Shown: positions 15,318 to 47,367 of the stretch, one piece after another
Position numbering within the stretch: position 1 is the stretch's first letter
How the letters are laid out: each line of letters starts with the position of its first letter
Source: Deltaproteobacteria bacterium
GTDB lineage: Bacteria; Desulfobacterota; Binatia; Binatales; Binataceae
Assembly: GCA_021794015.1 (NCBI GenBank)
Contig: JAJYRQ010000007.1
Coordinates: 9,755 to 73,754, forward strand
DNA length: 64,000 nt
Direction of reading: 5' to 3'
The notes under the pieces: model-generated
Databases searched by the model: none
Seen by the model: the letters and a program-made list of their open reading frames with translations, nothing else
Told to the model about the DNA's origin: nothing
Translations under genes and position numbers: made by a program

Positions 15318-15332
15318 TGGTATTCTCCCGAG

Positions 15333-27305: not shown

Positions 27306-27821
27306 CAGGGCTTGCTCTCCGGTTAGAACCTGCACGCCGGCGTTGCAACGCAACGGGCGTGCCGCCCAGCCTAAAAGGATTACCTAAAACCGCCTGGTCC
27401 AGTTGCCGGGCGCCGAGCAGCGGAAAACCCTTTTCCGCCGCGCTTCCGTGAAGCGCAACGCCAGGGAAACTCGGTTGCCGTGAGGCCGCCGCCGCGCCCA
27501 AAGGAAAGCGGCCTGGGTGGGACGGTCCGGCGCCGCACCGGCCGGGTCTTTTCCATGCAGCGCTCGTTTAGTGTCGCGCCTCAGACCCCTGCCTGAAGGG
27601 CGGCATGGCGTGGCCTGGTACACATAATGTCGCGTCTTGGTACAAGGCCACACGCGCCCGGGCGGGCAGGCGGCACAATGGCGCGTCACTCGACAATCCA
27701 AGAGTGGCAGAGTGTAGGGGAGCGCGCTGGAGTGCGGGGTTGGGATGCGAGCACGTTAGGCGTCGCAGCGCCCGGCCGCCCCGTGGCGGCCGCGGGCTCG
27801 GGCACAGCCGCGCTTGTGCTT

Positions 27822-28415: not shown

Positions 28416-29405
28416 CTAGGCGACCATTTCTTCGGCGGCGCGCACGGTTATCTTGCCTTCGCGCTCGAGCTGCATGGCCAGCGTGGTTAGCTCTCGGCGC
28501 GCCGCGCGCACGTCGCGCACGGGCACGGGTCCCATGGCCTCGAGCTCCTCGCGGATCGACTTGACGGTCACCTCGGGCAGGGCGCTGAAAATGGCCTGCT
28601 GTTGGTCGGCGGACAGCCCCTTTAGGGCGAGCGCGAGGCGCTCCGGGCGCGCGGCGGCCAGAATGGTCTGCAGGGTGCGGCCGTCGAGCCTGAAGAGGTC
28701 CTGAAAGCTGAACATTTCCTGCTCAATCGCGCTGGCGCGCGCGGCGTCGCCTTCACGGATCGCCTGGATTATCTTGCCCGCCACCTCGCCGTCGAGCTGG
28801 CTGAGCACTGCCGCCGCGCGCTGCACGCCCTGATTGCGTTTGCCGGCCTCGAAGGAGGCATGGCCGGCCAGGTTGGTTTCGATCGCCCGCAGCACGGCGT
28901 CCAGCGTGGGCGGGCTTACGCCTTCGGTTTCAGCGATCCGGGTGACGGTTTGCGCCCTAAGCTCTTCGGGCAGTCCCGCCAGCACTTCGGCGCTGTAGCG
29001 CGGAGGCAGGTGGGAGAGCACGATGGCCAGCGTCTGTGGCTGCTCGTCCTGGAGCATCGTGGTGAGCGCCTGAGGCGGCACGCGGGCGGCGATGGTGCGC
29101 CAGTGGTCGAGGCGCAGCATCTGCTCGGCGGTCTGGCCGCCGAAGGCGAGCGCCATCGCCTCGCGCATCATGTCGAGTGTCGAGGCGTTGCTGCCGGCTT
29201 GCAGGAACTCGCGCGCCACGGTCCGCATCTGTTCCTCGCTGGGCCGCTCGGTGGCGCCGGCGCTTTCGAGTTGCTGCATGATGCGCAGGACCTCGGGCGC
29301 TTGTAGCTGTTGGAGCAGCTTGGCCAGCACCGGCTGTTCGAGGTGCAGGATGAGCCAGAGTGCCTTGGTCAGGCCGGGATCGGCAGGAGGTGCGCTTTCT
29401 GCCAT
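28416..29405 (-). CDS. fliG: flagellar motor switch protein FliG
   Basis: ATG at 29405 gives about 330 aa with 'QTLAIVLSHLP', 'LQTILAAARPERLALALKGLS' and a C-terminal torque helix 'VRDVRAARRELTTLAMQLEREGKITV'. Confidence 0.85.
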   Translation of the reverse strand: MAESAPPADPGLTKALWLILHLEQPVLAKLLQQLQAPEVLRIMQQLESAGATERPSEEQMRTVAREFLQAGSNASTLDMMREAMALAFGGQTAEQMLRLDHWRTIAARVPPQALTTMLQDEQPQTLAIVLSHLPPRYSAEVLAGLPEELRAQTVTRIAETEGVSPPTLDAVLRAIETNLAGHASFEAGKRNQGVQRAAAVLSQLDGEVAGKIIQAIREGDAARASAIEQEMFSFQDLFRLDGRTLQTILAAARPERLALALKGLSADQQQAIFSALPEVTVKSIREELEAMGPVPVRDVRAARRELTTLAMQLEREGKITVRAAEEMVA

Positions 29406-29470
29406 GATCGGTTGACTCCTGGCGGTTTCGTTGTGATCCTGCCCCGGAGCCATGCTCCACACTGCGCGGG

Positions 29471-29770
29471 TCAGGCTGTATCCGTCGGCCGTTTTGCTAT
29501 CTGCCATCGCGCGTAGACCTTGGGCGGTGTGCCCTCCAGGATGCGGTTGATTTCAGCGAAGGCTGCGCCGCCTTCTTGAATCAGGGTTGCTTCGGCAAAG
29601 GGACGGCCGTTGGCCCAAAGCTCGATGCGCGGCGGCCAGCGGCAGGGTTCGACGATCTCCAGGCAGTCCTCGGTTTTAAGCGCGGCCAGCGTGCTGACCG
29701 GGATTCTTAGCCGGCAGAGCACGGCCGAGACCTCGACGGGAAGCCTGCTTGCGGCCTTAAGCTTGTTCAT
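29471..29770 (-). CDS. fliN: flagellar motor switch protein FliN (SpoA domain)
   Basis: 'VEVSAVLCRLRIPVSTLAALKTEDCLEIVEP...ELWANGRPFAEATLIQEGGAAFAEI'. Confidence 0.7.
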   Translation of the reverse strand: MNKLKAASRLPVEVSAVLCRLRIPVSTLAALKTEDCLEIVEPCRWPPRIELWANGRPFAEATLIQEGGAAFAEINRILEGTPPKVYARWQIAKRPTDTA

Positions 29771-30611
29771 CGCCGGCAAAGCGGCGGCGCAGGCGTAGCC
29801 TGACGCCGTCGGGTCCAAAGCTGGTCGCCACAGGCATCAGGTCGTGGTTGCGCGCGCGCAGGATGCACTCGACCGGATCGGGCAGCAGGACGCGGTCGCC
29901 GGGGCGCATCCGGCCCAGCTCGCCGACCGCGCTTTGCCAAATGCCCAGCACCACCTCGGCATCGACCGGGAGATCGTCCAGGGCGGGGCGGCCCGGGATT
30001 TGTTCCCGGGGTTTGTTGGCCTCGGTCTTGTCGCGCAACAGGTTGAGAAAGCCGGTCTCCAGCGCGATCAGGATTCTGCCCTCGCTGCCGGCGGGACCGC
30101 CGACAAGGCGGGTGACTATCATGTAGTCGCCGGGATCGAAGAAAAGCGTGAGATCGTGCAGGCGGCTGGCGCGATGGGTGAGTGTTGCCCGGCCCAAGCC
30201 GGCATGATCGCAGGCCTCGGCCAGCGCTTCAAAGACCAGGGTCGCGGCTTCTTCGGCGATTACCGCTTCGATCGAGGTGAAGGTGCGGCGCGGCTGGTCG
30301 CCCGCGCCGGCGCTAAGGCCCAGGTTGAAGTCAACGAAGCGGCGCGCCAGGACCGCGTCGATCGCCAGCAGCCCGGCGGCGGGGGCCTTCTCCAGGCTAA
30401 AGGCGCGCGCCAGGACCAGCGCGTCGTCTTCGGCATCAATTTGCGCGACGCGCACAAAGACGCCGGGCTGCGGCTCAAAACCGCCCAGGCTGCCCATCGA
30501 TTTGCGCAGCTTGGCGCCCACCGCGTGGTGCAGTTCGAGCAGCCGCATCCGCTGGATGGCGCTGAGCGTGGGGCGCCAGATTTCGTAGGGTTGTCCCTGT
30601 TCAGCGAGCAT
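29757..30611 (-). CDS. fliM: flagellar motor switch protein FliM (short, no recognisable N-terminal CheY-P binding motif)
   Basis: 284 aa with a CheC-like middle domain and a C-terminal SpoA-like domain. The N-terminus 'MLAEQGQPYEIWRPTL' replaces the LSQxEIDALL motif. Confidence 0.7.
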   Translation of the reverse strand: MLAEQGQPYEIWRPTLSAIQRMRLLELHHAVGAKLRKSMGSLGGFEPQPGVFVRVAQIDAEDDALVLARAFSLEKAPAAGLLAIDAVLARRFVDFNLGLSAGAGDQPRRTFTSIEAVIAEEAATLVFEALAEACDHAGLGRATLTHRASRLHDLTLFFDPGDYMIVTRLVGGPAGSEGRILIALETGFLNLLRDKTEANKPREQIPGRPALDDLPVDAEVVLGIWQSAVGELGRMRPGDRVLLPDPVECILRARNHDLMPVATSFGPDGVRLRLRRRFAGDEQA

Positions 30612-31344
30612 TAGCCGTTGCCTTCTCTAACGGCGGGCGCGAAAGCGCCGGTATGACGATGTCCACCCGCCGGTTGCGCGCCCGCTCCTGCTCGGTGTCG
30701 TTGCCGGCCACCGGGTGATAGGGACCGTAACCGGCCAGCGACAGGCGGCTGGCCGGTAGCGCGCAATGGTCGACGATGTAGCGCAAGACGTTGGCCGCAC
30801 GCGCCGCCGAAAGGTCCCAGTTGTCGGCAAAGCGGTTGTTGCTGATCGGGATCGAGTCGGTAAAACCCTCGATCCGCAGCGGATTGGGCAGCTTGACCAG
30901 CGGCGCCACGATCAGGTCGAGGGCCGGCTTCTCAGCGGGGTTGATGTCGGCCTGCCCGCTGGCAAAAAAGGGCGAGGCGGCAAGCCGTATGGTAAGCCCG
31001 TGCTCGTCGGCTATCAGGCTCACCCCCGAAACGGGATATTGGCTTAGGGAGGCCTCGAGCGCGCGCTGAGCGCGGGCCAAAGCGCGGTCGTGGTACCTCT
31101 TGACGCTTGGCCGTGCTCCCTTGGCTATCGGATTGTTCAACTGCGGCCGCTCGCCGCCCATCAGCGGCTTGGCCCCGAGCGCCACCGCCATCGCTCGCCA
31201 AATCTTGATGCGGTCGTTCGCCGATGAGATCGCCACGGCGTAAAGCAGCACGAAGAGCGCGAACAGCGTCGTGATGAAGTCGGCGTAGGAGACGATCCAG
31301 CGCTCGTCGACGTGCCCGCCGCCCTGCTGTTCGTCGTCCGCCAT
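30601..31344 (-). CDS. motB: flagellar stator protein MotB
   Basis: ATG at 31344 gives 'DERWIVSYADFITTLFALFVLLYAV' (the plug/TM segment with conserved D) and an OmpA-like C-terminus 'NWDLSAARAANVLRYI...NRRVDIVI'. The ORF-track Arg-rich N-terminal extension is an artefact. Confidence 0.8.
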   Translation of the reverse strand: MADDEQQGGGHVDERWIVSYADFITTLFALFVLLYAVAISSANDRIKIWRAMAVALGAKPLMGGERPQLNNPIAKGARPSVKRYHDRALARAQRALEASLSQYPVSGVSLIADEHGLTIRLAASPFFASGQADINPAEKPALDLIVAPLVKLPNPLRIEGFTDSIPISNNRFADNWDLSAARAANVLRYIVDHCALPASRLSLAGYGPYHPVAGNDTEQERARNRRVDIVIPALSRPPLEKATANAR

Positions 31345-31379: not shown

Positions 31380-32204
31380 TCAGGCGGCCCGGGCACGGCC
31401 GGTTTCGGACCCCTCGGCCGCCGCCGTGGTCTGCCCGCCGCTGGAGAAGTGGAGTCCTTCGGCCATCAGTTGGCGAAGCGGCGTGCCGATCATCCCTGCA
31501 CGCAGGCCCTCGATGCCGGTCACCACGAGCCGGTCGAGTTGGCGCTCGCTTATCGCGCGGGTGCGGATTTTGCGGGCTACAGGGTAGGCGATCAGGTTGG
31601 CAAACCCGACGCCGTAGACCGTGGCGACAAAGGCCGTGGCGATGCCCTCGCCGACCTTGCTCGGGTCGGCAAGGTTGCCCATGGTGTGAATCAGGCCGAG
31701 CACCGCGCCCAGGATGCCGAAAGTGGGCAGGTAGCCGCCGGCCGCCTCGAAGACCTCGGCGCCGGCGTTGTTGAGCCGCACCCGTTCGTGGAAGGCCCGC
31801 TCCATAATGGTAGCCATCGATTCCTCGGGAGTGTTGCTGATAATCAGATTGAGGCCGGTGCTCAGCATCGCGTAACGTTCCTCGCGCGCGTATTTTTGCA
31901 GGGCGATCGGGCCTTCCTTGCGCAGGACGGTGGCATAGCGGACGACGCGCTCGATGAGATCGTAAGGGTCGGGCGTGTCTTCGCTGATTACCTTGCGCAG
32001 GTCGCGCATCGCCGCCCAAAGGTAGCTCTGGGAAAAAGAGACCGCGCACGAAGCAACCGTGGCGCCGAGCACGATGAGCGCCGCGCTTTTCTGTAACAGC
32101 GCACCGATGCTGCCGCCCTCCATATGTTGGCCGAGCAGGATGAAGCCGGGTCCGGCCAAAAGGCCGAGCAGGCTGGCGAAATCGATGCGTCCACCCTTTT
32201 GCAT
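31380..32204 (-). CDS. motA: flagellar stator protein MotA
   Basis: ATG at 32204 gives four TM segments and 'YLPTFGILGAVLGLIHTMGNL...IATAFVATVYGVGFANLIAYPVARKI'. Confidence 0.85.
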   Translation of the reverse strand: MQKGGRIDFASLLGLLAGPGFILLGQHMEGGSIGALLQKSAALIVLGATVASCAVSFSQSYLWAAMRDLRKVISEDTPDPYDLIERVVRYATVLRKEGPIALQKYAREERYAMLSTGLNLIISNTPEESMATIMERAFHERVRLNNAGAEVFEAAGGYLPTFGILGAVLGLIHTMGNLADPSKVGEGIATAFVATVYGVGFANLIAYPVARKIRTRAISERQLDRLVVTGIEGLRAGMIGTPLRQLMAEGLHFSSGGQTTAAAEGSETGRARAA

Positions 32205-32251: not shown

Positions 32252-33553
32252 CTACGGTACATGCGAAGACATCGGGCCCGGCGCAGGCGGCAGCTCGAGC
32301 ATCGGTTGCGGCGCCAGCGCGGGCGCGCCCGCCGGGCCGGTGAAGATGCGCTGGGCGCCGCGCCTGCGCGAAAGCCCCGCCTTGGTGATGTGGTACTGCA
32401 GCGCGCGCGTGGTGATGCCGAGCTTGTGGGCGGCCTCGGCCCGGTTGCCGCCGCAGGCGGTGATCACGCGCAACACCATTTCGCGCCGCGCCTCCTCGCG
32501 GCTGACTTTCCAGCCCGAGCCGGCCGCCGGCTCGGGCGCCTTGATGTTGGCAAGTTGGCGGCGCAAGTCGGCAAGGTCGACCTGGTGGTTTGCCGCCGCA
32601 AGCGGGACGATCGCCAGGCGCGCGGCCAGATTGCTCAACTCGCGCACGTTGCCCGGAAATGGGTAGCTGCCAAGCATCCGCAAAGCCCCGGCCGTAAACC
32701 AACGGCGCGGGTTGGCCTGCCTGAGGAAATGCGCGGCCAAAAGCGTGATGTCCGCAGGACGCTCGCGCAGGGGCGGAAGCTTGATGCTGAAGACGTTAAG
32801 CCGCCAGTAAAGGTCGCGGCGTAGTTCGCCTCGCTCGACGCTTTGGCTGAGCAAGCGGTTGGTCGCGCCGATGTAGCGGGTTCGCCGCTCTGCGCCCGCG
32901 TCGTCCGCCGCGGCTGGCGCCGCGTCGTCCAGCTCGAGCCGGCGTAAAAAGCGCGCCTGCGCCGCGGACGAGAGTTCCGCAATCTCGTCAAGAAAGAGGG
33001 TAGCTTGCGGCGCCGGCGCCAGCGGGTCGTCAGCCGGCTGCAAGCTTTGGCTCGCCGCAAGCTCGGGCGGCTCGGCGCCGCCGCCTTCCAGCGTGGCGCA
33101 GTTGAGCACCCGAAACGGACCGCGGGCGTTGCTCGCCCGGTGGATCAGGCGGGCCAAGGTCTTCTTGCCGCTGCCGGTCTCTCCTTCCAGGATGACCGGT
33201 ACGGGGCTGGGCGCAACCGCCAGCGCGGTGCGCAGCGCGTGAAACATTTCGGCGTCAGCCGTGAGCAGGGGCGGCGCAAGTCCCAGCACGTGGCAGAGAA
33301 TGAAACAGGCCGCGGCCTGCAAATTGTCGCCGGCAAAGTTGGCTCCGGCACGCGGCGCACGCTGAACCTGCTTGCCCAGGTCAAGGCTGAGCAGCGGGAT
33401 ACCGCCGGGCTGCGCGCCGACGAAATCAATGTAAAGCGTTGCATGCTGCTTCTGGGCGTAGGGCAGAGGTTCCAGTCCCAGGCGCCTTAGCAGCTCGGGC
33501 AGCTCGCCCGGCGCGCCAAGACCGAGGCAGATACGGGCTGACGTCAGCTTCAC
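32252..33553 (-). CDS. AAA+ sigma-54-activator-type regulator (FleQ/FlbD-like position) lacking the GAFTGA loop; C-terminal Fis-type HTH
   Basis: 'LEGETGSGKKTLARLIH' (Walker A), 'TLFLDEIAELS' (Walker B), 'YIGATNRLL', 'YWRLNV', 'PPLRERPADI', 'FPGNVRELSNL' and HTH 'GNRAEAAHKLGITTRALQYHI'. The segment that normally carries ESELFGHEKGAFTGA is replaced by 'GGGAEPPELAASQSLQPADDPLAPAPQ'. Confidence 0.7.
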   Translation of the reverse strand: MKLTSARICLGLGAPGELPELLRRLGLEPLPYAQKQHATLYIDFVGAQPGGIPLLSLDLGKQVQRAPRAGANFAGDNLQAAACFILCHVLGLAPPLLTADAEMFHALRTALAVAPSPVPVILEGETGSGKKTLARLIHRASNARGPFRVLNCATLEGGGAEPPELAASQSLQPADDPLAPAPQATLFLDEIAELSSAAQARFLRRLELDDAAPAAADDAGAERRTRYIGATNRLLSQSVERGELRRDLYWRLNVFSIKLPPLRERPADITLLAAHFLRQANPRRWFTAGALRMLGSYPFPGNVRELSNLAARLAIVPLAAANHQVDLADLRRQLANIKAPEPAAGSGWKVSREEARREMVLRVITACGGNRAEAAHKLGITTRALQYHITKAGLSRRRGAQRIFTGPAGAPALAPQPMLELPPAPGPMSSHVP

Positions 33554-33702
33554 GGGGCGATGGCCTCCTTGGCGCGTTCGCGGCCGCGCCCCGCGCCTTG
33601 CCGAGCAGTTGCAGTTAAGGCGCGGCCGGCGGGGCGGCGAAAGGCCGTTTTGCGTGGCCTGGGCTCTGGTCGCAGCATGGGCCCGGTTTAGCCGTAAATC
33701 TG

Positions 33703-34131
33703 CTAGCGCAGCGACCCGGCGTGCCCTTGCGCTGCTGCGTCGAGCACCTCGGTTATGCGCACGCCGATTTGATCCTGCACCACTACGACCTCGGCGCGGG
33801 CGAAAAGAGCGCCGTTGACGTAGATATCGACCGGCTCACCGGCGTGACGGTCGAGCCGCAGTGTGTTGCCGACCTCGATTTCGCTCAGCACTTCGCCCAG
33901 GGTGAGCGTGGTGCGCCCGACCTCGACGTGCACCGTCATCGGCACCTGGGACAGGGCTCCCAGTTCGCTCGGTTGGGCGGTCTGAGGCGCAGCCGGCTTT
34001 GCCTCTGACGCGGCCGCAGCGCTCTCCTGCACGAGCGGCGGCGGCGGCGCAGCGGGCCGCTTCGCCGCCTTGGCGAGCACACCCGGCGGCGGGCTGGAGG
34101 ACGGCTTAAGGGTGGGTTGCTGTGCTTCCAT
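33703..34131 (-). CDS. second FliN-like SpoA-domain protein
   Basis: 'MTVHVEVGRTTLTLGEVLSEIEVGNTLRLDRHAGEPVDIYVNGALFARAEVVVVQDQIGVRITEVL' is an SpoA fold preceded by a Pro/Ala-rich linker. Start taken at Met 34131. Confidence 0.5.
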   Translation of the reverse strand: MEAQQPTLKPSSSPPPGVLAKAAKRPAAPPPPLVQESAAAASEAKPAAPQTAQPSELGALSQVPMTVHVEVGRTTLTLGEVLSEIEVGNTLRLDRHAGEPVDIYVNGALFARAEVVVVQDQIGVRITEVLDAAAQGHAGSLR

Positions 34132-35167
34132 TTTGCCAAGCCTTCTCCCGAACGAGAAATTTGCGCCATCCCCGGTCTTCGACCACGGTGCCGTAAAACA
34201 CCGGGTGCCCGTTGCAGGCAAGCTCAACCGGCATCGGCGCCTGTTGCGCGCGGTTCAGTACCAGCATGCTTCCGGGCCTAAGCCCGGCCAAATCGCCGAG
34301 CGGCAGCGTAACCGTGGCCAGCACGGCGTGCAGCTCGATCCGGGTTTTTGTGCTCGCGCCCACGATCGCCAATGCCGGCGCTGTTTCCTTCTTGAGGCCA
34401 GGCTGGCACGCGGGCAAACGTCCCCGCACGCCCATCAGGGCCGGCAGCGGCAACGCAAGTCCCAACGGCTCCCTGAGCAATCCGAGGGTGCATTGCGCGA
34501 CCAGCGCGGCGACTCGTTCCTGGGGCGCAACGGGCGCCGAGGCGCCCGCGGCCGGCAGGCTGCCGTCGGACTGCAGGCGTACGGCGCGTCCCTCGGCGCC
34601 GAATAGTTCTCCAAGACCTCGATTGAAGCCGTCAAGGGTCGCGGTGTTGAGCGTGTCGAACAATACCGCCGTTTCCAGCGCGGTCAAAGGACGCGCGGCG
34701 TCTCCAGGGGTTGTCGGCGCGGGAACCTCCCGGCTGAAGAGATCGTCTACCAACGCCCGGGCAAGCTGTTCCGTCAGCGCCAAAACCGCCACGGTCTGAA
34801 GATTCACCTCGACGGCGACGGCCAGTGCTCCTGCGCCCAGGCGAGCGGTGAAGGCAGCGTAGGATTCGACTCTCAAGCCGGCATCCAGCATCGTGGGCGG
34901 CCGCGCCGTGAACGTCGCAAAAGCGGCGCGCAAACCGTCGAAAAAGCGCTCGCTCAGTATCCTGAGCTGGGTCAGCTCCTCGCGCTTGAGCGCGTAGGTC
35001 TCGGCCAATGCTGCTAGTCCGGTTGCTTCCATGACCGCAGCCGGGAACAGCAAGAAGGATGCCGCCGGTGATGGTGCGAACGTCAAGGCGTCATAGGAAG
35101 GCGAAAGGAAAAAACACTGCCCGTGTCGCCCTAAACCCGCGGCTTCGAATGCGTCAGCGCGGGACAT
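34106..35167 (-). CDS. second FliM-like switch protein (CheC-like middle plus a C-terminal SpoA domain)
   Basis: ATG at 35167. The C-terminal 'RIELHAVLATVTLPLGDLAGLRPGSMLVLNRAQQAPMPVELACNGHPVFYGTVVEDRGWRKF' is an SpoA fold, and there is no N-terminal CheY-binding motif. Confidence 0.5.
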   Translation of the reverse strand: MSRADAFEAAGLGRHGQCFFLSPSYDALTFAPSPAASFLLFPAAVMEATGLAALAETYALKREELTQLRILSERFFDGLRAAFATFTARPPTMLDAGLRVESYAAFTARLGAGALAVAVEVNLQTVAVLALTEQLARALVDDLFSREVPAPTTPGDAARPLTALETAVLFDTLNTATLDGFNRGLGELFGAEGRAVRLQSDGSLPAAGASAPVAPQERVAALVAQCTLGLLREPLGLALPLPALMGVRGRLPACQPGLKKETAPALAIVGASTKTRIELHAVLATVTLPLGDLAGLRPGSMLVLNRAQQAPMPVELACNGHPVFYGTVVEDRGWRKFLVREKAWQNGSTATHP

Positions 35168-35475
35168 GGTGTCGCAGCGGCGACACCGAAGCGTTCGCTC
35201 AACCCATCTCGGTAAAACAGAGTTGATGTCCCACAGGGAAAAAACCTTCCCTTGGCCTGCCGGCCGCCGCCCGTTGACCCGGCCCGCGCCGCAATTGCCT
35301 CGACAGGAGGGAGCAAGCCGGCCCTGCGCCACACACCGAGGCCGGCGACCAAGACGAGTGATGCGCGAAGGTCAACCAACAACAACGCCGGCGCAACTTA
35401 GCGCGATGCGCGCGCGGCCACATTCGCTCGCCGCAGAACGAAAAAAGCGCAATCGCCCAACCCACGCTGCGCCCG

Positions 35476-35483
35476 GCCGACAA
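35476..35483 (+). promoter_or_regulatory. sigma-28-like -10 element (GCCGACAA) upstream of the flagellin gene
   Basis: It is one mismatch from the GCCGATAA consensus and lies about 67 nt before the flagellin GTG. A -35 TAAA-like element is not clear. Confidence 0.3.
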
Positions 35484-35549: not shown

Positions 35550-36779
35550 GTGCTAAGTATTCTCACCAACATGGGGGCCATCGAAGCCTCCAACGCCCTG
35601 CAGAACAACGAACTCTCACTTAACCAGTCGATCGCCCAGCTTTCCAGCGGCAAGCGAATCGTAACCGCGGCCAACGACCCGGCCGGTCTTGCCATTTCGA
35701 TGGAGATAACCGGCCTGCTCGGCGCGCTCAACCAGAACTCGACCAACACGGCCAACGCCCAGGGGATGCTGCAGACCGCCGACGGCGCGCTGGCCAACAT
35801 CGGCAACTCGCTCGCCACCATGCAGCAGCTTGCCACCGAGGCGGCCGACGGCACGATTAACAGTACCCAGCGGTCGGCGCTCGACTCGCAGTATCAGGCG
35901 CTTTACAAGGAGATCAACAACATCGCCCAGAGCAGCCAGTTCAACTCGATAAACCTGCTCCAGGGCGCAAGTGTCACCTTCCAGGTCGGTCCGACCGACA
36001 GTTCTGCCAATCAACTCGCGGTGACCATGCCTGACGTTACGGCAGCCGGCCTTCTTGGCGTGACGCCGCTTACCCCAGGCACCCTGCTAACCAGCGGCAC
36101 CAACGTTACCGTAACCGCTCCCGGCACCGACACGATGACGCTCGGCACAGGCGCGACGGCTGACTCCGGCATTGCGGCGAACACGGTCACGTCGGCCGCG
36201 CCGGTAAGCGGCACGCTCTCCTCGACGCCGCCCAATGAGGTGACCCTGACCGTTACCGGCACGACCAACAGCTCTGGCACCGGTACGGTCGGCACCGACA
36301 GCATCACCTTTGTCTTAACCGACTCCAACGGTACGACCTCGTCGCCCTTTACGATCACCCCGACCAACATGACGGTGCAGAACCTGGACAATCTGGGCTT
36401 CGACGTCCAATTCAAGACTGGCAATACCTACGCGGTCGGCCAGCAGGTGGGCTTTGTCTTCGGCACCTCCGGCAACCAGGTGAGCATTGCCACGCAAAGC
36501 GCGGCGCAGCAGCAGGTGACGCAGACCGCCAGCGGGCTGTCGACGCTTGCAGGCTACCGGGGCAACATGGGGGCCTACGAGCAGCAGTTGCAGACGGTCT
36601 CGGCCAACCTGCAGTCGGAGCAGCAAAACCTGACCTCCGCGCTCTCCAACATCCAGGACGCCAACATCGCGCAGACCATGGCGAGCTTCACCCAGTACCT
36701 GGTGCTGCAACAGGCTGACGTGTCGGTGCTGAAAAACGCGCAGCAGGTGCCGCAACAGCTCGTAGCGCTGCTCCAGTAG
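35550..36779 (+). CDS. fliC: flagellin
   Basis: GTG start 8 nt after AAAGGAGGGG. The conserved D0/D1 ends are 'IAQLSSGKRIVTAANDPAGLAISMEITG...' and '...LAGYRGNMGAYEQQLQTVSANLQSEQQNLTSALSNIQDANIAQTMASFTQYLVLQQAD'. The central region is Thr/Ser/Gly-rich. Confidence 0.9.
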   Translation: MLSILTNMGAIEASNALQNNELSLNQSIAQLSSGKRIVTAANDPAGLAISMEITGLLGALNQNSTNTANAQGMLQTADGALANIGNSLATMQQLATEAADGTINSTQRSALDSQYQALYKEINNIAQSSQFNSINLLQGASVTFQVGPTDSSANQLAVTMPDVTAAGLLGVTPLTPGTLLTSGTNVTVTAPGTDTMTLGTGATADSGIAANTVTSAAPVSGTLSSTPPNEVTLTVTGTTNSSGTGTVGTDSITFVLTDSNGTTSSPFTITPTNMTVQNLDNLGFDVQFKTGNTYAVGQQVGFVFGTSGNQVSIATQSAAQQQVTQTASGLSTLAGYRGNMGAYEQQLQTVSANLQSEQQNLTSALSNIQDANIAQTMASFTQYLVLQQADVSVLKNAQQVPQQLVALLQ

Positions 36780-38306: not shown

Positions 38307-40523
38307 ATGAAAGGACCAGGCGCGGCGCTGAACGGAGCAGCACCATTGCCCCCGACGGCGGGGAGCGCCGCCGCAGCGCGCCAGCCGGCCTTAAGCTCGG
38401 TAAGCGACGAGGCAGGGCGCTATCGGGCGCGTGGCGACCGTCTTGCCCTTAAAGGACAACTTGAACTTGCGGCCCAGGCTTACGCGCGCGTGCTGGAGAT
38501 AAATCCCGACGACGCTGTTGCTCATTCCAACCTGGGCGCGGTGCTCATCAGATTGGGCGCCCTGGCGGAAGCCGGCCTGCACCTAAGCCGCGCGGTCGAG
38601 TTGGCGCCCGATCTGGCCGACGCATATTCCAACCAAGCCTGCCTGCTGGTGCGGCTGGGGCGCTTTAGCGAGGCCGGCCAGAGCGCCCGGCGCTGCCTTG
38701 AGCTAAAGCCGTCGCACGTCGAGGGATGGATCAACTTGGGAGGGGCTTTCGCCGGCGCGGGCTTTAGTGGGCAAGCCAAGCGATGTTTGTTGCAGGCGGC
38801 CAAGCTTGCGCCCAACCGCGCCCGTGTCTGGCTGGACCTGGCGGACCTGCTGTGGCAAAACCGCGAGTTCGAGTTGGCCTTGAAATCCTGTCAACGGGCG
38901 CTGGCGCTCGATCCGGCTGCGCCCCAGGCGCAGGCGCTTCTGGGTGCGGTGCAGAGCGTGCTGCACGGACCTGACGCCGGGATCGTGCACCTGGTCCGCG
39001 CGCTGGCGTTTGACCCTCGAAACCCGGCGACGCTCGACACCCTGGGCGCGCTGCTGGCGCAACAGGGCAAGCCGCAGGCGGCGCAGGGCGCCTACCTGAA
39101 GGCGCTCGAAGTGGGAGCAGGCGCCCGGGCCAGCGCGATCAAACTCAAGCTTGCCGCCTTGGCGCCGGTGATACCGGAATCGACCGCCGAGATTCTTGCC
39201 TGGAGAAAGCGGGCCGACACGAGGCTTGCAGCACTGGTTAAAGACGACAGCCTAAAGCTCACAGATCCCTACCGGGAGGTGAATCTGGTGAGCTTCTATC
39301 GGGCGTACCACGGACTTAACGAGGCAGGGTTAAACCGCCGCTTTGCAGAGGTCTACCTCAAGGCATGCCCCGAGTTGGGCTGGACGGCGCCGCACTGTCA
39401 GAACTGGAAACGGCCGAGGCATTTGCGCCTGGGAATGATTACGGCTTTCGAGCAGACGCACATCGTGGGCGAGCTGTATCGGGCCATTGCGCGGCTGTTC
39501 GATCGCCGGCGCTTCGAGGTCTTTGGCCTTTACTCGCCGCGTTTGGCGAAAGATCCCCGGTCCATTGCGCCTGAGCTGGACGGAGTTGTGAGCTATGCGC
39601 CGGCGCTGGCGCCGGCCCGCGCAGCGATTGCCGAGGCGAGGCTCGACGTTCTTTTCCACCTGGACGTCTTCATGGACCCGTTCAGCTATTTTCTTAGCTT
39701 TGCGCGGCTGGCGCCGATCCAGTGTACGACCTGGGGCCATCCGCTAAGCACTGGCGTGCCCAACATGGATTACTTCATTTCGGCTGAGGACTGGGAGGTG
39801 CCCGGCGCCGAGGCGCACTATACCGAGCGGCTGGTAAGGCTAAAGGCGCTGCCGATGTACTTCGAGCGGCCGCCGGTTCCGGAAAGGGCTTTCGAGCGCG
39901 AGCGCCTGGGGGTGGACAGGGAGGCCAGGCTTTACCTCAGCCTGCAGAGCCTGTTCAAGCTGCATCCTGATTTTGACGCCGCGTTGGCCGGAGTTCTAAG
40001 GCGCGACTCAAAGGGCGTGGTGCTGTTGCTAAGCGGCAATGCGGCACACTGGGATGCGCTCTTTAGGCGGCGTTTTGAGCAGGCTTTTCCCGACGTTGCC
40101 GCGCGGGTTTTCTTGCTGCCGAAGCTTACGCGGCGCGACTACCTGGCACTGCTCAAGGCGAGTGACGCGGTGCTCGACCCGTTTCACTGGTCGGGGGGCA
40201 ACACGACCCTCGAGGCGCTTGCCTGTGGCGTGCCGGTGCCGACGCTTGCGAGCGAGTACCTGCGCGGCAGGCTGACGCTGGGCTTTTACCGCAGGATGGG
40301 GATCGCCGAGCTGGTGGTCCAAAGCTGTGATGAGTTCGTCGATCTCAACGTTCGGATTGCCAACGACCGGCCGTTTAGGCAAGTCCTGCAGGCCGCGGTC
40401 GAGGAGCGTCTAGCGCGGCTCTGGCAGGACCAGGGCGGAATCGAGGCGCTGGAGGAATTTTTCCTTGAAACAGCCGAGAAACAAGAATCTCAGTCGCGAA
40501 GCGATGCAACCGATATCGCCTAA
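38307..40523 (+). CDS. TPR-repeat + GT41-like glycosyltransferase (FlmG-like candidate flagellin glycosyltransferase)
   Basis: The N-terminal 330 aa contain repeated TPR units ('AHSNLGAVLIRLGALAEA', 'AYSNQACLLVRLGRFSEA' and others). The C-terminus resembles an O-GlcNAc-transferase fold: 'TTWGHPLSTGVPNMDYFIS...DPFHWSGGNTTLEALACGVPVPTL'. Confidence 0.65.
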   Translation: MKGPGAALNGAAPLPPTAGSAAAARQPALSSVSDEAGRYRARGDRLALKGQLELAAQAYARVLEINPDDAVAHSNLGAVLIRLGALAEAGLHLSRAVELAPDLADAYSNQACLLVRLGRFSEAGQSARRCLELKPSHVEGWINLGGAFAGAGFSGQAKRCLLQAAKLAPNRARVWLDLADLLWQNREFELALKSCQRALALDPAAPQAQALLGAVQSVLHGPDAGIVHLVRALAFDPRNPATLDTLGALLAQQGKPQAAQGAYLKALEVGAGARASAIKLKLAALAPVIPESTAEILAWRKRADTRLAALVKDDSLKLTDPYREVNLVSFYRAYHGLNEAGLNRRFAEVYLKACPELGWTAPHCQNWKRPRHLRLGMITAFEQTHIVGELYRAIARLFDRRRFEVFGLYSPRLAKDPRSIAPELDGVVSYAPALAPARAAIAEARLDVLFHLDVFMDPFSYFLSFARLAPIQCTTWGHPLSTGVPNMDYFISAEDWEVPGAEAHYTERLVRLKALPMYFERPPVPERAFERERLGVDREARLYLSLQSLFKLHPDFDAALAGVLRRDSKGVVLLLSGNAAHWDALFRRRFEQAFPDVAARVFLLPKLTRRDYLALLKASDAVLDPFHWSGGNTTLEALACGVPVPTLASEYLRGRLTLGFYRRMGIAELVVQSCDEFVDLNVRIANDRPFRQVLQAAVEERLARLWQDQGGIEALEEFFLETAEKQESQSRSDATDIA

Positions 40524-41316
40524 ATGGGCCGCCCAGGCCAGTCGCCGCCTGCATGCCTACCTGGACGCGCTTGCAGCTTCACCCAAGCTGGTGGCCGACG
40601 ACGGCCGGCTCTACGACGTCTATCCTGTGGGCCTTACCCCGGAGCGGGCCGGACTTCTGGTCGAGGTGTGCCGCAGCGCGCGGCCGCGGGCCACCCTGGA
40701 AGTGGGCATGGCCTTGGGCGTCTCGACCCTGACTATTCTGGAAGCGCTTCTCGAAGGCGGCCCCATGGCCAGCCGCCACGTGGTAATCGACCCGTTTCAG
40801 CAAAGCCAGTGGCGCAACGCAGCGCGGCGCTCGCTTAGGCTGCTTGGAGTCGAGGAGCTGGTCGAGTTTTACGAAGAGTCGTCGCTGGCCGTGCTGCCCC
40901 GGATGGTTGGCGAAGGCCGGCGTTTCGATCTGATATTTGTCGACGGCAACCATCGCTTCGACTACGCCTTTGTCGATTTCCGCTTTGCCCACGAGCTTCT
41001 GACAGCCGGGGGAGTCGTCGTGCTGGACGATACCTGGCTTGACGCGCTGCATCTTACGGTTCGTTACGCCGAGACCAACCTGGGCTACACGATTTGCGCG
41101 GCCGCCGGGCGAACTATGGGCCGGCCGGCGATTTTGGCGTTGCGCAAGCCGGCGGAAGAACCGCGCCGAGGCTGTTCGCACTTTGAATCGTGCGGCTGCC
41201 AGGATTTTGTCCCGTTCTTCGACGGGCCGGACGCGGTCGTGCCGGTGCCGTCAGAGGAAGCCGATCTCGGGCGGCGCGCGGATGGCATGGCAGGTGTAGA
41301 GTGCGCCGAAGCGTGA
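40504..41316 (+). CDS. class I SAM-dependent methyltransferase
   Basis: 'LEVGMALGVSTLTILEAL' (motif I GxGxG-like), 'DLIFVDGNH' and 'GGVVVLDD'. The ORF-track start at 40465 overlaps the glycosyltransferase. Confidence 0.55.
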   Translation: MQPISPKWAAQASRRLHAYLDALAASPKLVADDGRLYDVYPVGLTPERAGLLVEVCRSARPRATLEVGMALGVSTLTILEALLEGGPMASRHVVIDPFQQSQWRNAARRSLRLLGVEELVEFYEESSLAVLPRMVGEGRRFDLIFVDGNHRFDYAFVDFRFAHELLTAGGVVVLDDTWLDALHLTVRYAETNLGYTICAAAGRTMGRPAILALRKPAEEPRRGCSHFESCGCQDFVPFFDGPDAVVPVPSEEADLGRRADGMAGVECAEA

Positions 41317-44102: not shown

Positions 44103-44402
44103 CCAATTCGGCGACTTCTCAGAGCGGCATCCTCGCCCGCCGCCGCAGAGCCATCCGGCCGGGCATGCCGGCGGGCGCTGGGCCGTTCGGTCTGTCTCTG
44201 GAGACCGGCGAAGCGGCGCCTGGCGACCCGAGCATCGTTTCGCCGGTAGGCGAGCAAGAGCGTTCAGGATTCATGCGGAGAGTACGCCGCCGAAGGGAAA
44301 GGTGGTTAAAATGTCTTGTGTAGCCCTCGGTTGCGAACGGTTAAAGGCGCTGTGCTGGAACAGGCTGGGGGTGCCGGTAGGATTAGCCGCGCAAGGATGC
44401 CA

Positions 44403-45695
44403 ATGGTAGAGCGCAGGAAGGTCGTCATTTTGGGCAGTAACGGTACGATGGGCGCCGGCGCGGCGGTGGTCTTTGCCGGCGCCGGATTCGAGGTCGTGAT
44501 GCTGGCGCGCGAGCCGGCCAAGGCGCGCGCCGGGATCGAGGCGGCCAAGCGCGTCGCCCGCTCGGAGGCGGTTGCCGAACGGATCGAGTACGGCAGCTAT
44601 CGCGAGCATCTGGCGCGGGCAGTGGCGCAGGCGGATATCGTGTTCGAGGCGCTGGCCGAGGAGTTGGAACTCAAGCGCGCTTTCTTCGCCGAGGTAGACC
44701 GCTGGCGCAAGCCCGAGGCGCTGGTGGCGAGCAATTCCTCGGGGCTTTCGATGGCCGAGATGGCCGCCGGGCACAGCCTTTCGTTTCGCCGTTGCTTTCT
44801 GGGCATTCATCTCTTCAACCCGCCGCACCTGGTGGTCGGCGCCGAGGTGGTGCCGAATCCCGAGTCCGACCCGGAGGTGGTTGAGCAAACCGCGGTCCTG
44901 CTGGCCCGGCGGCTGGGCCGCAAGGTGATCGTTGCGGGCGACCAGCCGGGCTTCGTAGGCAATCGTGTCGGCCTCAAGGTGCTCAACGAAGTGGCGCAGC
45001 TTGCCGTCGAACATGGGGTGGCGCTGATGGATTACCTGGTGGGGCCGCACACCGGACGCTCGATGCCGCCGCTTAAGACCATCGACCTTATCGGATGGGA
45101 CGTCCACAAGGCGATTGTTGCCAACATTTATGCGCGTTGCCCCGAGGACCCGGCGCGTGATTCATTTCGCCTGCCGCAGTTTATCGAACACGGCGTCGCG
45201 GCCGGGCGGCTCGGAGTCAAGACGCCGGCCGGCGGCGGGTTCTACCGCCAGGAGACGAACGGCACCCTGACCGTGCTCGATCCGGCAAGCGCAGAGTACC
45301 GGCCCTACCGGGCGCCTGCGCCCGTCGGGTTTGTTGAGGCGATGCGAAGACTCAACCGGATCGGCCGCTACCGTGAAGCGGTCGCGGTGATGGCCGACGC
45401 GCAGGGCGCCGAGGCGGAGCTTTTGCGCCGCCTGGTTCTGGGCTACCTAAGCTACGGGCTTGGGCTGTGCGGCGGGGTTGCACGCACCGCGGCCGACGTC
45501 GATACGATCATGGGTTACGGTTTCAACTGGGCGCCGCCGGGAGCGTTGGTCGATCTGCTGGGGGCGCGCCGCACGGTTGAGCTGCTTGAGCGCCACCGGC
45601 TTGCGGTGCCGGCGGTGGTCGAGCGCGCCGCGGCAAATGGAGAACGACTGTGCGGGGGCGGCCCGATGGAATACGGCCGCACTCTAGTGGGATAA
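44403..45695 (+). CDS. 3-hydroxyacyl-CoA dehydrogenase family protein
   Basis: Rossmann 'KVVILGSNGTMGAGAAVVFAGAGFEVVM', then 'GFVGNRV' and a C-terminal 3HCDH dimerisation domain. Confidence 0.8.
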   Translation: MVERRKVVILGSNGTMGAGAAVVFAGAGFEVVMLAREPAKARAGIEAAKRVARSEAVAERIEYGSYREHLARAVAQADIVFEALAEELELKRAFFAEVDRWRKPEALVASNSSGLSMAEMAAGHSLSFRRCFLGIHLFNPPHLVVGAEVVPNPESDPEVVEQTAVLLARRLGRKVIVAGDQPGFVGNRVGLKVLNEVAQLAVEHGVALMDYLVGPHTGRSMPPLKTIDLIGWDVHKAIVANIYARCPEDPARDSFRLPQFIEHGVAAGRLGVKTPAGGGFYRQETNGTLTVLDPASAEYRPYRAPAPVGFVEAMRRLNRIGRYREAVAVMADAQGAEAELLRRLVLGYLSYGLGLCGGVARTAADVDTIMGYGFNWAPPGALVDLLGARRTVELLERHRLAVPAVVERAAANGERLCGGGPMEYGRTLVG

Positions 45696-45710
45696 AAAGG
45701 AGCTACGATT

Positions 45711-46946
45711 ATGGCCAAGGCACCGGCGGTTTATATTCTGGGCGGCGCGCAAAGCGATTTCGCCCGCAACTGGACCAAGGAGGGCAAGCACTTCGTGGCG
45801 ATAATGCGCGAGGTGGTGCTGGCTGCGCTCGAGACCGCGAAGCTTGAGCCGCACGAAGTGGAGACGGCGCACGTCGGCAATTTCGCCGCCGAACTCTACG
45901 CCAAGCAGGGGCATGTCGGGGCGTTTTTCGTCGAGATCGATCCGGCTTTTCGCGGTCTGCCCACGGCGCGGCACGAGGCAGCCTGCGCCTCGGGCTCGAT
46001 CGCGGCGCTCGCCGCCTCGGCCGAAATCGAGGCCGGCCGCTACGATCTGGCCGCGGTGGTGGGCGTCGAGCAGATGAAAACCGTCGATTCGGTCACCGGC
46101 GGCGATTTTCTCGGCACTGCCGCCTGGTACGAGCGCGAATCCAAGGGTATTGAGTTTCCCTTTCCCAAGCTCTTCGGGCGGTTGGGCGATGAATACGACC
46201 GGCGCTACGGACTCAAGGACGAGTACCTGGCGCGCATTTCAGCCATCAACTACGCCAACGCGCGGCGCAACCCGCTGGCCCAGACGCGCAACTGGTTCAT
46301 GAGCGACAGCCACGCGCTCAAGAGCGACAAGTACAACGCCGTGGTGGCCGGTCGAATCAAGGTCAGCGACTGTTCGCAGATAACCGACGGCGCGGTGGCC
46401 CTCTTCCTTGCCTCGGAGCGCTGGGCCGCGCGGTACGCCCGCCGCCATGGGGTGGCGCTGGAGCGCATTCCCCGCATTTTAGGCTGGGGACACCACACGG
46501 CGCCGCTTGAATTTGACACCAAGGTTGCGGAAAGCCGGGAGAGTGCTTACGTTCTCCCACATACGAGGCAGGCGATCCTGGATGCTTTTCAGCGGGCAGG
46601 GGTGGCTTCGGTCGAACAGATCTCGGCAATCGAGACGCACGATTGCTTTACCACCTCCGAATATATGGCTATCGATCATTTCGGCATCACCGCGCCCGGC
46701 CAGTCATGGAAGGCGATCGAGGAGGGCTGGATCGAACCGGGTGGACGCATCCCGATAAACCCCAGCGGCGGCTTGATTGGCGCCGGGCATCCGGTGGGCG
46801 CCACCGGCGTTCGGCAGTTGCTTGACGCTTACCGGCAGGTCGCCGGGCAGGCGGGCGATTACCAGGTCGAGGGCGCCGGCCGGGTGGCGACGCTGAACAT
46901 CGGCGGCAGCGGAACGACCAGTTGCGCTTTCGTGGTAGGCTGCTGA
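45711..46946 (+). CDS. thiolase-family acyltransferase (SCP-x/propanoyl-CoA C-acyltransferase-like)
   Basis: 'AVYILGGAQSDFARN', active-site Cys context 'EAACASGSIAALAAS' and C-terminal 'NPSGGLIGAGHPVGATGVRQ'. Confidence 0.8.
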   Translation: MAKAPAVYILGGAQSDFARNWTKEGKHFVAIMREVVLAALETAKLEPHEVETAHVGNFAAELYAKQGHVGAFFVEIDPAFRGLPTARHEAACASGSIAALAASAEIEAGRYDLAAVVGVEQMKTVDSVTGGDFLGTAAWYERESKGIEFPFPKLFGRLGDEYDRRYGLKDEYLARISAINYANARRNPLAQTRNWFMSDSHALKSDKYNAVVAGRIKVSDCSQITDGAVALFLASERWAARYARRHGVALERIPRILGWGHHTAPLEFDTKVAESRESAYVLPHTRQAILDAFQRAGVASVEQISAIETHDCFTTSEYMAIDHFGITAPGQSWKAIEEGWIEPGGRIPINPSGGLIGAGHPVGATGVRQLLDAYRQVAGQAGDYQVEGAGRVATLNIGGSGTTSCAFVVGC

Positions 46947-47042
46947 GCCCGTGCCGGACGTCGAGCGCTCGGCCGAGGACGCTATCGGTATATCAACTTG
47001 AGCGGACAATGAGCCGTTCATGACACGAGGAGGACAAAGAGA

Positions 47043-47282
47043 ATGTCAATGACAGAACCCTTGAGCGGGTCCGAGTTTGTCGAAGGCACCAGGAAGTTTG
47101 CTTCCTGGTATATCGACACCGGCGAGAAGTTCGCCAACGCGGTCCTTGACTTGCAGAGCGCGACGACCAAGTGGGCAAAGGAAACGCCGCTCGGCCCGGT
47201 CTTCGAGGCGCAGAACGACTTTGCGCGCAAGCTGGTCAAGCAGGGATCCGAGACCGCGCGCAACCTCTGGCAGCGCGCGTAA
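47043..47282 (+). CDS. small phasin-like protein upstream of phaC (tentative)
   Basis: 79-aa helical, Lys/Glu-rich protein immediately upstream of the PHA synthase. Phasin identity is inferred from context only. Confidence 0.3.
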   Translation: MSMTEPLSGSEFVEGTRKFASWYIDTGEKFANAVLDLQSATTKWAKETPLGPVFEAQNDFARKLVKQGSETARNLWQRA

Positions 47283-47367
47283 CCTTCGGTAGTCTCGCCC
47301 GGGCGATGGGAGCATCGACGGCCTGCAAGCCGCATGCTTCCTGCGCCCGGCGCGACGGCTCCCAGCC

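Follow-up and report, generated by a model that had tools for sequence, protein, structure and literature searches.

What does a protein built like a sigma-54 activator do in a flagellar operon if it has no loop with which to contact sigma-54? The question is raised by a gene on the minus strand (32252–33553) of a 64,000-nucleotide stretch of contig JAJYRQ010000007.1 from a Deltaproteobacteria bacterium (assembly GCA_021794015.1), the whole of which is referred to below as the window. The gene encodes a 433-amino-acid (aa) enhancer-binding-type AAA+ protein without the GAFTGA motif, here called the regulator, and lies in a near-complete flagellar cluster that occupies the minus strand between 35032 and ∼4527. 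Judged from its sequence relatives, the regulator represents a Binatota-specific family with a tripartite build: the N-terminal domain is receiver-like and private to the family, the AAA+ module has neither the L1 nor the L2 loop, and the Fis-type helix-turn-helix (HTH) hardly varies. The reading that we favor, at a probability of about one half, is that the regulator is a sigma-54-blind derivative of an enhancer-binding protein that is expressed from a sigma-54 operon and binds DNA to modulate flagellar promoters.

Architecture of the regulator and its family

The regulator gene starts with a GTG codon at 33553 on the minus strand, and direct reading of the sequence places a Shine-Dalgarno sequence, AAGGAGG, in front of it (33564–33570, minus strand). 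The product is identical to the public protein P0001. It matches the Pfam families Sigma54_activat (aa 98–257, E-value 2e-26), AAA_lid_14 (aa 263–341) and HTH_8 (aa 353–389, nucleotides 32387–32497; E-value 1.5e-6, 28.2 bits against a cut-off of 22). Alignments to sequences of Protein Data Bank (PDB) entries, combined with motif location, identified Walker A as GETGSGKKT (aa 124–132, 33158–33184), Walker B as LFLDEI with an intact DE pair (aa 186–191, 32981–32998) and the arginine-finger region as RRDLYWRLNV (aa 245–254, 32792–32821); sensor II, GNVREL with its arginine kept (aa 301–306, 32636–32653), was located by motif, all of these elements being on the minus strand. The G-E-x-G-x-G-K pattern of Walker A is invariant across the family alignments, and R251 of the arginine finger is invariant in the flagellar clade and nearly so in wider alignments. 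By its Sigma54_activat fold, Walker A and B motifs, arginine finger and sensor II, the regulator is an enhancer-binding-type AAA+ protein. The presence of HTH_8 likewise gives it a Fis-type HTH, DNA binding itself being predicted. In phmmer searches against PDB sequences, ZraR (1e-39), NifA and NtrC1/NtrC4 ranked above FlrC, FleQ and FlrA (1e-26 to 1e-28), VpsR and NtrX, and its NCBIfam matches were spread over many enhancer-binding families, all below threshold (NorR, RtcR, NifA, AtoC, FlbD, NtrX and TyrR). The AlphaFold model of the full-length protein has a predicted local distance difference test (pLDDT) score of 85 and is uncertain solely at L1 (51–76) and L2 (∼68).

These two regions are where the regulator departs from canonical activators. 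In residue-by-residue alignments to ZraR, NifA and NtrC1/NtrC4, the segment LEGGGAEPPELAASQSLQPADDPLAPAPQ (aa 155–183, 33005–33091, minus strand) lies exactly opposite their ESELFGHEKGAFTGA, in place of the L1/GAFTGA loop. This replacement is rich in proline and alanine and is not conserved in sequence. A motif scan found no GAFTGA-like motif in the regulator or in any of the six frames of the 64-kb window, and neither these six-frame scans nor motif scans of the family sequences turned up a relocated equivalent. The L2 (pre-sensor I) region, LELDDAAPAAADDAGAERRT (aa 206–225, 32879–32938, minus strand), is degenerate, being variable and gapped in the family alignment and modeled with a pLDDT of ∼68. 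Both the GAFTGA loop and the conserved L2 insertion of enhancer-binding proteins are absent from the regulator. Precedent indicates that enhancer-binding proteins without GAFTGA do not use sigma-54; TyrR, DhaR, HupR, VpsR, NtrC of Rhodobacter capsulatus and of Caulobacter, and NtrX are treated as sigma-70-type regulators (PMC3162934, PMC10274813). Because the GAFTGA loop is missing, the regulator is, by analogy with these proteins, not expected to contact sigma-54, and this supports the view that it should not activate sigma-54 polymerase.

The N-terminal ∼95 residues (aa 1–95, 33269–33553, minus strand) form a lineage-specific α/β domain, delineated by AlphaFold and profile search, which has no family match in Pfam or NCBIfam. 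Its model is confident (pLDDT 87.8), with the fold β-α-β-α-β3-α. In Foldseek searches against the PDB, receiver domains were the best matches, with weak scores (E-values of at least 0.047, template modeling scores of at most 0.53), so the domain is weakly receiver-like, which we treat as a lead and not as a finding. The acidic phospho-acceptor pocket of receivers is missing. The initial annotation had described a protein with the sigma-54-activator-type AAA+ landmarks and a C-terminal Fis-type HTH, a replaced GAFTGA segment and an N-terminus that is not a recognizable receiver. All three statements stand: each landmark is where it was said to be, no equivalent loop was found elsewhere, and the N-terminus matches no known family.

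More than 100 homologous clusters were found (38–59% identity), several with Candidatus Binataceae as their source name, and 76 homologues were aligned, the relatives being drawn from that group. None of the 76 contains GAFTGA. From the NCA motif to Walker B there are 22–55 unconserved residues, against ∼37 in canonical proteins, so that the hairpin is simply deleted in many relatives. L2 varies among them as well. When 1.84 billion representative proteins were searched with a profile of the N-terminal domain, 44 clusters only were retrieved; among the 41 new representatives with this domain, the AAA+ part could be read in 26, again with no GAFTGA-like motif (0/26). On sequence grounds, loss of the loop is a lineage-wide trait and not a lesion. 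In contrast to the loops, the family strongly conserves its N-terminal domain and its HTH (GGNRAEAARRLGITxRALQYHITKAGLSR), and the recognition helix, RALQYHITKAGLS in the regulator, is nearly invariant. Since these two domains are so well kept and the fold is intact in the model, the regulator does not appear to be a pseudogene.

Catalytic residues of the AAA+ module erode across the same family. The sensor II arginine is replaced by Leu, Met, Val or Ile in 55 of the 76 homologues, and the Walker B DE pair is present in 65 of the 75 scored, a non-flagellar subclade having DQ. In most of the distant representatives that share the N-terminal domain, the acidic pair is lost (DR, DH, NR, NH or HR). 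The majority of the wider family thus probably has an AAA+ module that no longer hydrolyzes ATP, and this erosion supports a role in oligomerization and DNA binding rather than in sigma-54 remodeling. The DQ subclade is divergent (P0099–P0108), and the single genomic context read for it (P0108, locus L002) is non-flagellar; flagellar linkage is for this reason restricted to the main clade and not extended to the whole family. Non-flagellar or uncharacterized relatives with the N-terminal domain comprise the gene at 10001–11353 of L002 and the proteins P0099–P0108 and P0126–P0160, with DQ, DR, DH, NR, NH or HR in Walker B.

Two further searches help to delimit the family. The recognition helix RALQYHI is confined to family members among all fetched loci, and a canonical activator with the same helix, which would have supported a decoy role, was found in none of the 84 loci. 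In a scan of a genome collection for relatives, true family members accounted for 3 of the 80 loci returned, the others being ordinary GAFTGA activators that share the FRxxLYWRLN motif. The family also calls for a warning on annotation: more than 100 of its proteins are publicly labeled 'sigma-54-dependent/interacting regulator' or 'NtrC/FlrC family response regulator', labels that mislead because the proteins have neither the sigma-54 loop nor a recognizable receiver domain.

Operon position and sigma-54-type promoters

The operon begins with fliM (34106–35032, minus strand, 308 aa), identified by its FliMN_C domain and a best NCBIfam match to fliM_switch that is below the cut-off (E-value 2.8e-8); its start, ATG at 35032, was set by the N-terminus conserved in relatives. 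It is followed by fliN (33703–34131, minus strand, 142 aa; Pfam FliMN_C, NCBIfam fliN with 85.2 bits against a cut-off of 84.05) and then by the regulator gene. The 150-nucleotide (nt) gap between fliN and the regulator in the window contains no convincing promoter or terminator that we could detect. The regulator follows fliM and fliN in seven genomes. The order fliC (divergent), fliM, fliN, regulator, (motA), motB, second fliM-like gene, (second fliN-like gene) and fliG, followed further on by flgB, flgC, fliE and fliF, is common to loci L001, L003, L004, L005 and L084; L083 retains fliM-fliN-regulator, and the P0009 contig has fliM-fliN-regulator-motA-motB, by gene calls only. In L001, L083 and L084 the start of the regulator gene abuts or overlaps the fliN stop codon.

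Sigma-54-type promoter elements precede this operon and the next. A −24/−12 element, CGGCATCCTTCTTGCT, is located 17 nt upstream of the fliM ATG (35049–35064, minus strand), and another, CGGCACGCCCGTTGCG, 13 nt upstream of the GTG start of flgB at 27335 (27349–27364, minus strand); an alternative flgB start, an ATG at 27305 with a Shine-Dalgarno sequence, lies 30 nt beyond the GTG. Both agree with the consensus for sigma-54, TGGCAC-N5-TTGCW, including its invariant GG and GC, and both are conserved in relatives. The conserved fliM element reads TGGCAT-N5-CTTGCT and is found 12–17 nt 5′ of the fliM start. The orthologous position holds TGGCATTTCTCTTGCT in L001 and L003, TGGCATTCCTCTTGCT in L004, TGGCATCCGCCTTGCT in L005, TGGCATCGGACTTGCG in L083 and the weaker CGGTATCGGTTTTGCT in L084. 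Elements of the flgB type lie 12–14 nt 5′ of the flgB ATG in L001, L003, L004, L005 and L084. At fixed spacing, fliM sites were thus present in seven of seven genomes and flgB sites in six of six. In four of the relatives, the two elements are at 8655–8670 and 16152–16167 (L001), 8684–8699 and 16857–16872 (L003), 1141–1156 and 6521–6536 (L004), and 8672–8687 and 15618–15633 (L005).

The DNA that flanks the −24/−12 elements of fliM and flgB is not conserved, and in a MAFFT alignment of five fliM upstream regions the only invariant block consisted of the element and the ATG. Twelve sites scoring at least 9.5 occurred in 367 kb of strand sequence from seven sources, nine of them at fliM or flgB promoter positions. 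The probability of a site scoring at least 8.5 in a given 10-nt window is ∼0.0017; the genomes are related, so a product of such probabilities overstates the significance. Across the window as a whole there was no enrichment of the sigma-54 consensus (29 matches with up to two mismatches against 32.7 expected), and the sigma-54 signal resides only in position and cross-genome conservation. Because the promoters are only 12–17 nt from the start codons and come without a Shine-Dalgarno sequence, the sigma-54 transcripts of fliM and flgB would be near-leaderless, with leaders of ∼1–6 nt, a second testable oddity of this locus.

These observations change the place of the regulator in the hierarchy. 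The initial annotation had put its gene at the head of the operon, with fliM and fliN downstream of motB, and had proposed a hierarchy that is sigma-54-independent at the top with the regulator as its head. In fact, the gene is third, behind fliM and fliN on the same strand; the fliM and fliN genes that had been noted after motB are a second, very divergent FliM-like/FliN-like pair; and −24/−12 elements in front of class II operons, the finding that had been named in advance as speaking against such a hierarchy, are present at fliM and flgB. The early flagellar operons look sigma-54-dependent on these sequence criteria. Because conserved −24/−12 elements precede both the fliM operon, which contains the regulator gene, and the flgB operon, the regulator is most likely a product of the sigma-54-dependent tier and not a sigma-54-independent master.

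Candidate sites for a DNA-binding regulator accompany the promoters, most of which have a palindrome on their upstream side. A palindrome search found the motif GGAAAA-N3-TTTTCC as an exact copy, GGAAAACCCTTTTCC, 58 nt upstream of the −24 element of flgB (27422–27436), and as an imperfect copy, GGAAAAAACCTTCCC, in the fliC-fliM intergenic region (35237–35251); both are candidate activator or operator sites, without strand assignment. A third copy, the near-perfect GGGAAAATCTTTTCC at 16387–16401, lies within coding sequence at the fliR/flhB junction near the flhB start. In five genomes, 7 of the 11 matches with up to two mismatches are 23–173 nt upstream of promoters of the fliM or flgB type, and a TTTCC-type half-site occurs at −58 to −62 upstream of flgB in all five (exact in four, GCTTCC in L001). 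A dimer of a Fis-type HTH would fit this geometry, a 6-N3-6 dyad at ∼−70 to −95 relative to the predicted start. The cluster yielded no convincing promoter of the sigma-70 type next to a palindrome.

The GAFTGA-less regulator is the sole enhancer-binding-type protein encoded in the window. Canonical REC-AAA+-HTH activators with an intact ESELFGxxxGAFTGA are encoded on L052 (Candidatus Binataceae) and L065 (uncultured delta proteobacterium), and L003 has two canonical activators (GAFTGA and GAFSGA) less than 10 kb from the orthologous flagellar locus. Because of these activators on related contigs and the conserved −24/−12 elements, sigma-54 is very likely present in the lineage.

Two further −24/−12-like sequences were noted. 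In the window, CGGCACAGACCTAGCT (15331–15346, minus strand) lies 13 nt 5′ of the flhA ATG at 15317, with the geometry seen at flgB; this candidate for a third promoter of the sigma-54 type overlaps a plausible Shine-Dalgarno sequence (GGGAGAA). In L083, particulate monooxygenase-like genes (Pfam AmoC, AMO and Monooxygenase_B; 12940–15999, on the contig of P0040) are inserted directly after the regulator gene and separate it from fliH-fliI, and the next flagellar gene after this insertion is preceded by TGGCCTGCTCCTTGCT (19042–19057).

Known relatives and competing explanations

With its retained AAA+ fold and replaced L1 loop, the regulator fits, by alignment and model, among the GAFTGA-less homologues of enhancer-binding proteins. 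It shares with NtrC of R. capsulatus and Caulobacter crescentus and with NtrX the enhancer-binding-type AAA+ module and Fis-type HTH in which L1/GAFTGA is deleted or replaced, and those proteins, as we take the regulator to do, share their genomes with sigma-54 and with canonical activators. They are reported to act at sigma-70 promoters, and in R. capsulatus ATP binding suffices rather than hydrolysis (PMC3162934, PMC10274813). However, these NtrC and NtrX proteins have a genuine phosphorylatable receiver and serve nitrogen genes, whereas the regulator has an N-terminal fold of ∼95 aa that is private and has no acidic pocket, and its gene belongs to a flagellar operon with a sigma-54 promoter in front. 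Its similarity to NtrX is no higher than to other enhancer-binding proteins (E-value 3e-21 for the NtrX structure versus 1e-39 for ZraR). TyrR, PhhR, DhaR, HupR and VpsR have likewise lost GAFTGA and kept the AAA+ module, which in them is a nucleotide- or ligand-dependent oligomerization module of activators or repressors at sigma-70 promoters; they differ from the regulator in their N-terminal sensor domains (ACT/PAS or REC) and regulons. NCBIfam scores of the regulator are far below the family cut-offs (128.5 bits versus 600 for NtrX, 113.6 versus 576 for TyrR and 114.4 versus 551 for DhaR). Together with the ranking of the VpsR and NtrX structures below canonical activators and with the private N-terminal domain, these scores lead us to regard it as no ortholog of R. 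capsulatus or C. crescentus NtrC, NtrX, HupR, TyrR, DhaR or VpsR, and its loop loss, judged by the scores, as independent.

The flagellar activators FleQ, FlrA, FlbD, FlgR and FlrC resemble the regulator in flagellar association, in combining AAA+ and HTH_8, and in the sigma-54 promoters before early flagellar operons, and its N-terminus can be likened to the non-phosphorylatable receiver-like N-terminus of FleQ. They keep GAFTGA and activate sigma-54, however, and the regulator gene, unlike theirs, is inside and not above the sigma-54-driven operon. No FleQ-domain match was obtained in Pfam and no FleQ or FlrA model was among the 25 best NCBIfam hits; FlbD scored 136.9 bits versus a cut-off of 750 and FlgR 94.7 versus 750. 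By sequence, the regulator has neither the N-terminal domain or family match nor the sigma-54-independent top position of a FleQ/FlrA-type master regulator. A functional analogy, and no more than that, can be drawn to FleN (FlhG), the anti-activator of FleQ, and to FliX-FlbD, in which an early-made factor restrains or tunes a sigma-54 activator and sets flagellar gene dosage. FleN belongs to the MinD-type ATPases and has no DNA binding, and FliX is small and unrelated, whereas the regulator is a paralogue of enhancer-binding proteins with a DNA-binding domain.

On the interpretation that we prefer, a sigma-54-blind modulator, the regulator is probably a feedback or side-branch regulator and not a sigma-54-independent master switch. 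The early flagellar operons would be transcribed by sigma-54 polymerase, with the fliM and flgB promoters fired by a canonical GAFTGA activator encoded elsewhere, and the regulator would be produced together with switch and stator proteins, within the sigma-54 tier. It would bind flagellar promoter DNA through its HTH as a nucleotide-dependent oligomer, most plausibly at the palindromes upstream of sigma-54 promoters, and, because it would be unable to remodel sigma-54, it would tune these promoters rather than fire them. Most likely it would act as a feedback anti-activator or repressor that occupies upstream sites or poisons the true activator, the N-terminal domain supplying the input through a ligand or a switch or stator protein partner.

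The main alternative, likewise sigma-54-blind and possible, if doubtful, is a conventional sigma-70-dependent or sigma-28-assisting activator in the manner of Rhodobacter NtrC, HupR, VpsR, TyrR and Caulobacter NtrC, which would bind near −35 regions of non-sigma-54 promoters and switch on a later tier (fliC/fliD and other motility genes), linking the switch/stator operon to late genes. All characterized GAFTGA-less enhancer-binding proteins work at sigma-70 promoters, the regulator keeps its ATP-binding motifs, and one palindrome is in the shared fliC-fliM intergenic region; yet no sigma-70-type promoter with a neighboring palindrome was found, and the palindromes are at the typical enhancer distance from −24/−12 elements. 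The stronger version of this idea, a sigma-54-independent master at the top, conflicts with the third position of the gene behind a conserved sigma-54 promoter. The division of labor between FleQ and FleT in Cereibacter sphaeroides offers a comparison for a mixed hexamer, in which the regulator would be a DNA-tethering subunit that provides promoter targeting while a canonical GAFTGA partner contacts sigma-54. Conserved oligomerization surfaces and arginine finger, and the canonical activators of the lineage, two of them adjoining the cluster in L003, would be compatible with such an assembly. No partner is conserved in the neighborhood across the seven loci, however, and an activator lacking its own DNA-binding domain was not seen, so that we consider this speculative idea unlikely.

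Could the regulator nonetheless activate the sigma-54 flagellar promoters, contacting sigma-54 without GAFTGA? No other enhancer-binding-type gene lies in the cluster or the 64-kb window, the flanking sigma-54 promoters have upstream palindromes, Walker A and B, arginine finger and sensor II are intact, and the layout would be the positive autoregulatory one typical of flagellar regulators. This is very unlikely given that GAFTGA is essential in every tested system, that L1 and L2 vary in sequence and length and are deleted in many members (22–24 residues versus ∼37 in canonical proteins), and that catalytic residues decay across the family. We give as little credence to the boldest form of the proposal, firing of these promoters by a protein without L1 and L2. 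In a milder version, a dedicated paralogue would have evolved into a built-in, DNA-bound anti-activator of the sigma-54 flagellar promoters that is coupled through the N-terminal domain to switch/stator assembly. Barely credible is a non-functional, decaying relic of a former flagellar sigma-54 activator: the loss of L1 and L2 and the eroded ATPase motifs of relatives would suit it, but more than 100 clusters keep full length, a conserved N-terminal domain and a nearly invariant HTH, the structure models are confident, and the place after fliN is conserved, abutting or overlapping in three relatives.

Several points weigh against the sigma-54-blind modulator. No canonical activator is conserved beside the cluster, and the sole enhancer-binding-type gene in a window would normally be taken for the activator. 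Scanning for the RpoN-box motif gave no match in the window or the fetched Binatota loci (±10 kb per locus, not whole genomes). The candidate palindrome could be the site of the true activator instead of the regulator, and the 150-nt gap of the window, which relatives do not have, may contain a promoter of the regulator's own. Walker B DE, the arginine finger and the sensor II arginine are all kept in the regulator and its closest clade, in which ATP hydrolysis may still matter. Finally, the choice between negative and positive regulation is a matter of logic, and all functional statements made here are inferred.

We found no literature specific to flagella or sigma-54 in Binatota and no paper on a sigma-54-blind flagellar-operon regulator of this type. 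To our knowledge, this is the first description of a GAFTGA-less homologue of enhancer-binding proteins from within a flagellar operon, and no other is known to have an apparent sigma-54 promoter in control of its own gene. Such homologues as a class are already known; new here are the independent loop loss, the private N-terminal domain, the absence of both sigma-54-facing loops and the conserved place in a sigma-54-type flagellar operon. A sigma-54-blind paralogue under sigma-54 control is a testable paradox that should mildly surprise specialists. Should the feedback or anti-activator reading prove true, the flagellar genes of a widespread uncultured phylum would be subject to an additional, new level of control, through an element that acts negatively on a sigma-54 circuit or tunes it. 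The evolutionary route to it would be simple: an activator was duplicated and its sigma-54 contact loop deleted, while DNA binding and oligomerization were kept.

A plausible sigma-28 tier and other features of the cluster

The initial annotation had also pointed to fliA and flgM and to a sigma-28-dependent bottom tier, and both proposals find support. A fliA-like sigma factor gene (12670–13275, minus strand) encodes Sigma70_r2 and r4 domains and has FliA/WhiG as its best NCBIfam match (84 bits, below the cut-off), and flgM, for the anti-sigma-28 factor (7024–7362, minus strand), scores above its cut-off (NCBIfam FlgM, 44.4 bits versus 40.75). By sequence motif, a sigma-28-like promoter candidate, CCAA-N15-GCCGACAA (35457–35483, plus strand), lies upstream of fliC (35550–36779), with the −10-like GCCGACAA 67 nt 5′ of this gene. 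A CCA(A/G)(C/T)-N12-GCCGnnnA block, judged by eye to be partly conserved, occurs upstream of fliC in L001, L003, L004 and L005. The bottom flagellar tier is thus plausibly sigma-28-dependent.

In transcription order, the cluster opens with fliM, fliN, the regulator gene, motA and motB, after which come the divergent genes for a FliM-like and a FliN/SctQ-like protein, fliG and a gene for a lytic transglycosylase. All on the minus strand, motA (31380–32204; MotA_ExbB and MotA_N) begins 47 nt 3′ of the regulator stop codon and is followed by motB (30601–31344; MotB_plug and OmpA). The cluster encodes two FliM/FliN sets, the divergent pair being located between motB and fliG: the second FliM-like gene (29757–30611, minus strand, 284 aa) is very divergent, with a match to fliM_switch at an E-value of 1e-3 only, and the FliN/SctQ-like gene (29471–29818, minus strand, 115 aa) was assigned by domain search and synteny, as was fliG (28416–29507, minus strand) by domain search and synteny in relatives. 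The divergent FliM-like gene is kept in L001, L003, L004, L005 and L084, and the FliN-like gene at least in L001, L005 and L084. Next come flgB, flgC, fliE, fliF, fliH, fliI, fliJ, fliK, flgD, flgE, fliL, fliP, (fliQ, unchecked), fliR, flhB and flhA, and the cluster ends with the fliA-like gene, flgF, flgG, flgA, flgH, flgI, flgM, flgK and flgL. The genes fliC and fliD are on the plus strand, divergent from the fliM cluster. Directly after fliD (38307–41316, plus strand), the window encodes a 738-aa protein with tetratricopeptide repeats and a GT41 (O-GlcNAc-transferase-like) domain and a methyltransferase, which are candidates for flagellin glycosylation or modification. Adjoining the flagellar region (44316–49170, plus strand) are genes for a 3-hydroxyacyl-CoA dehydrogenase, a thiolase and a PhaC-type polyhydroxyalkanoate synthase, an ordinary metabolic context.

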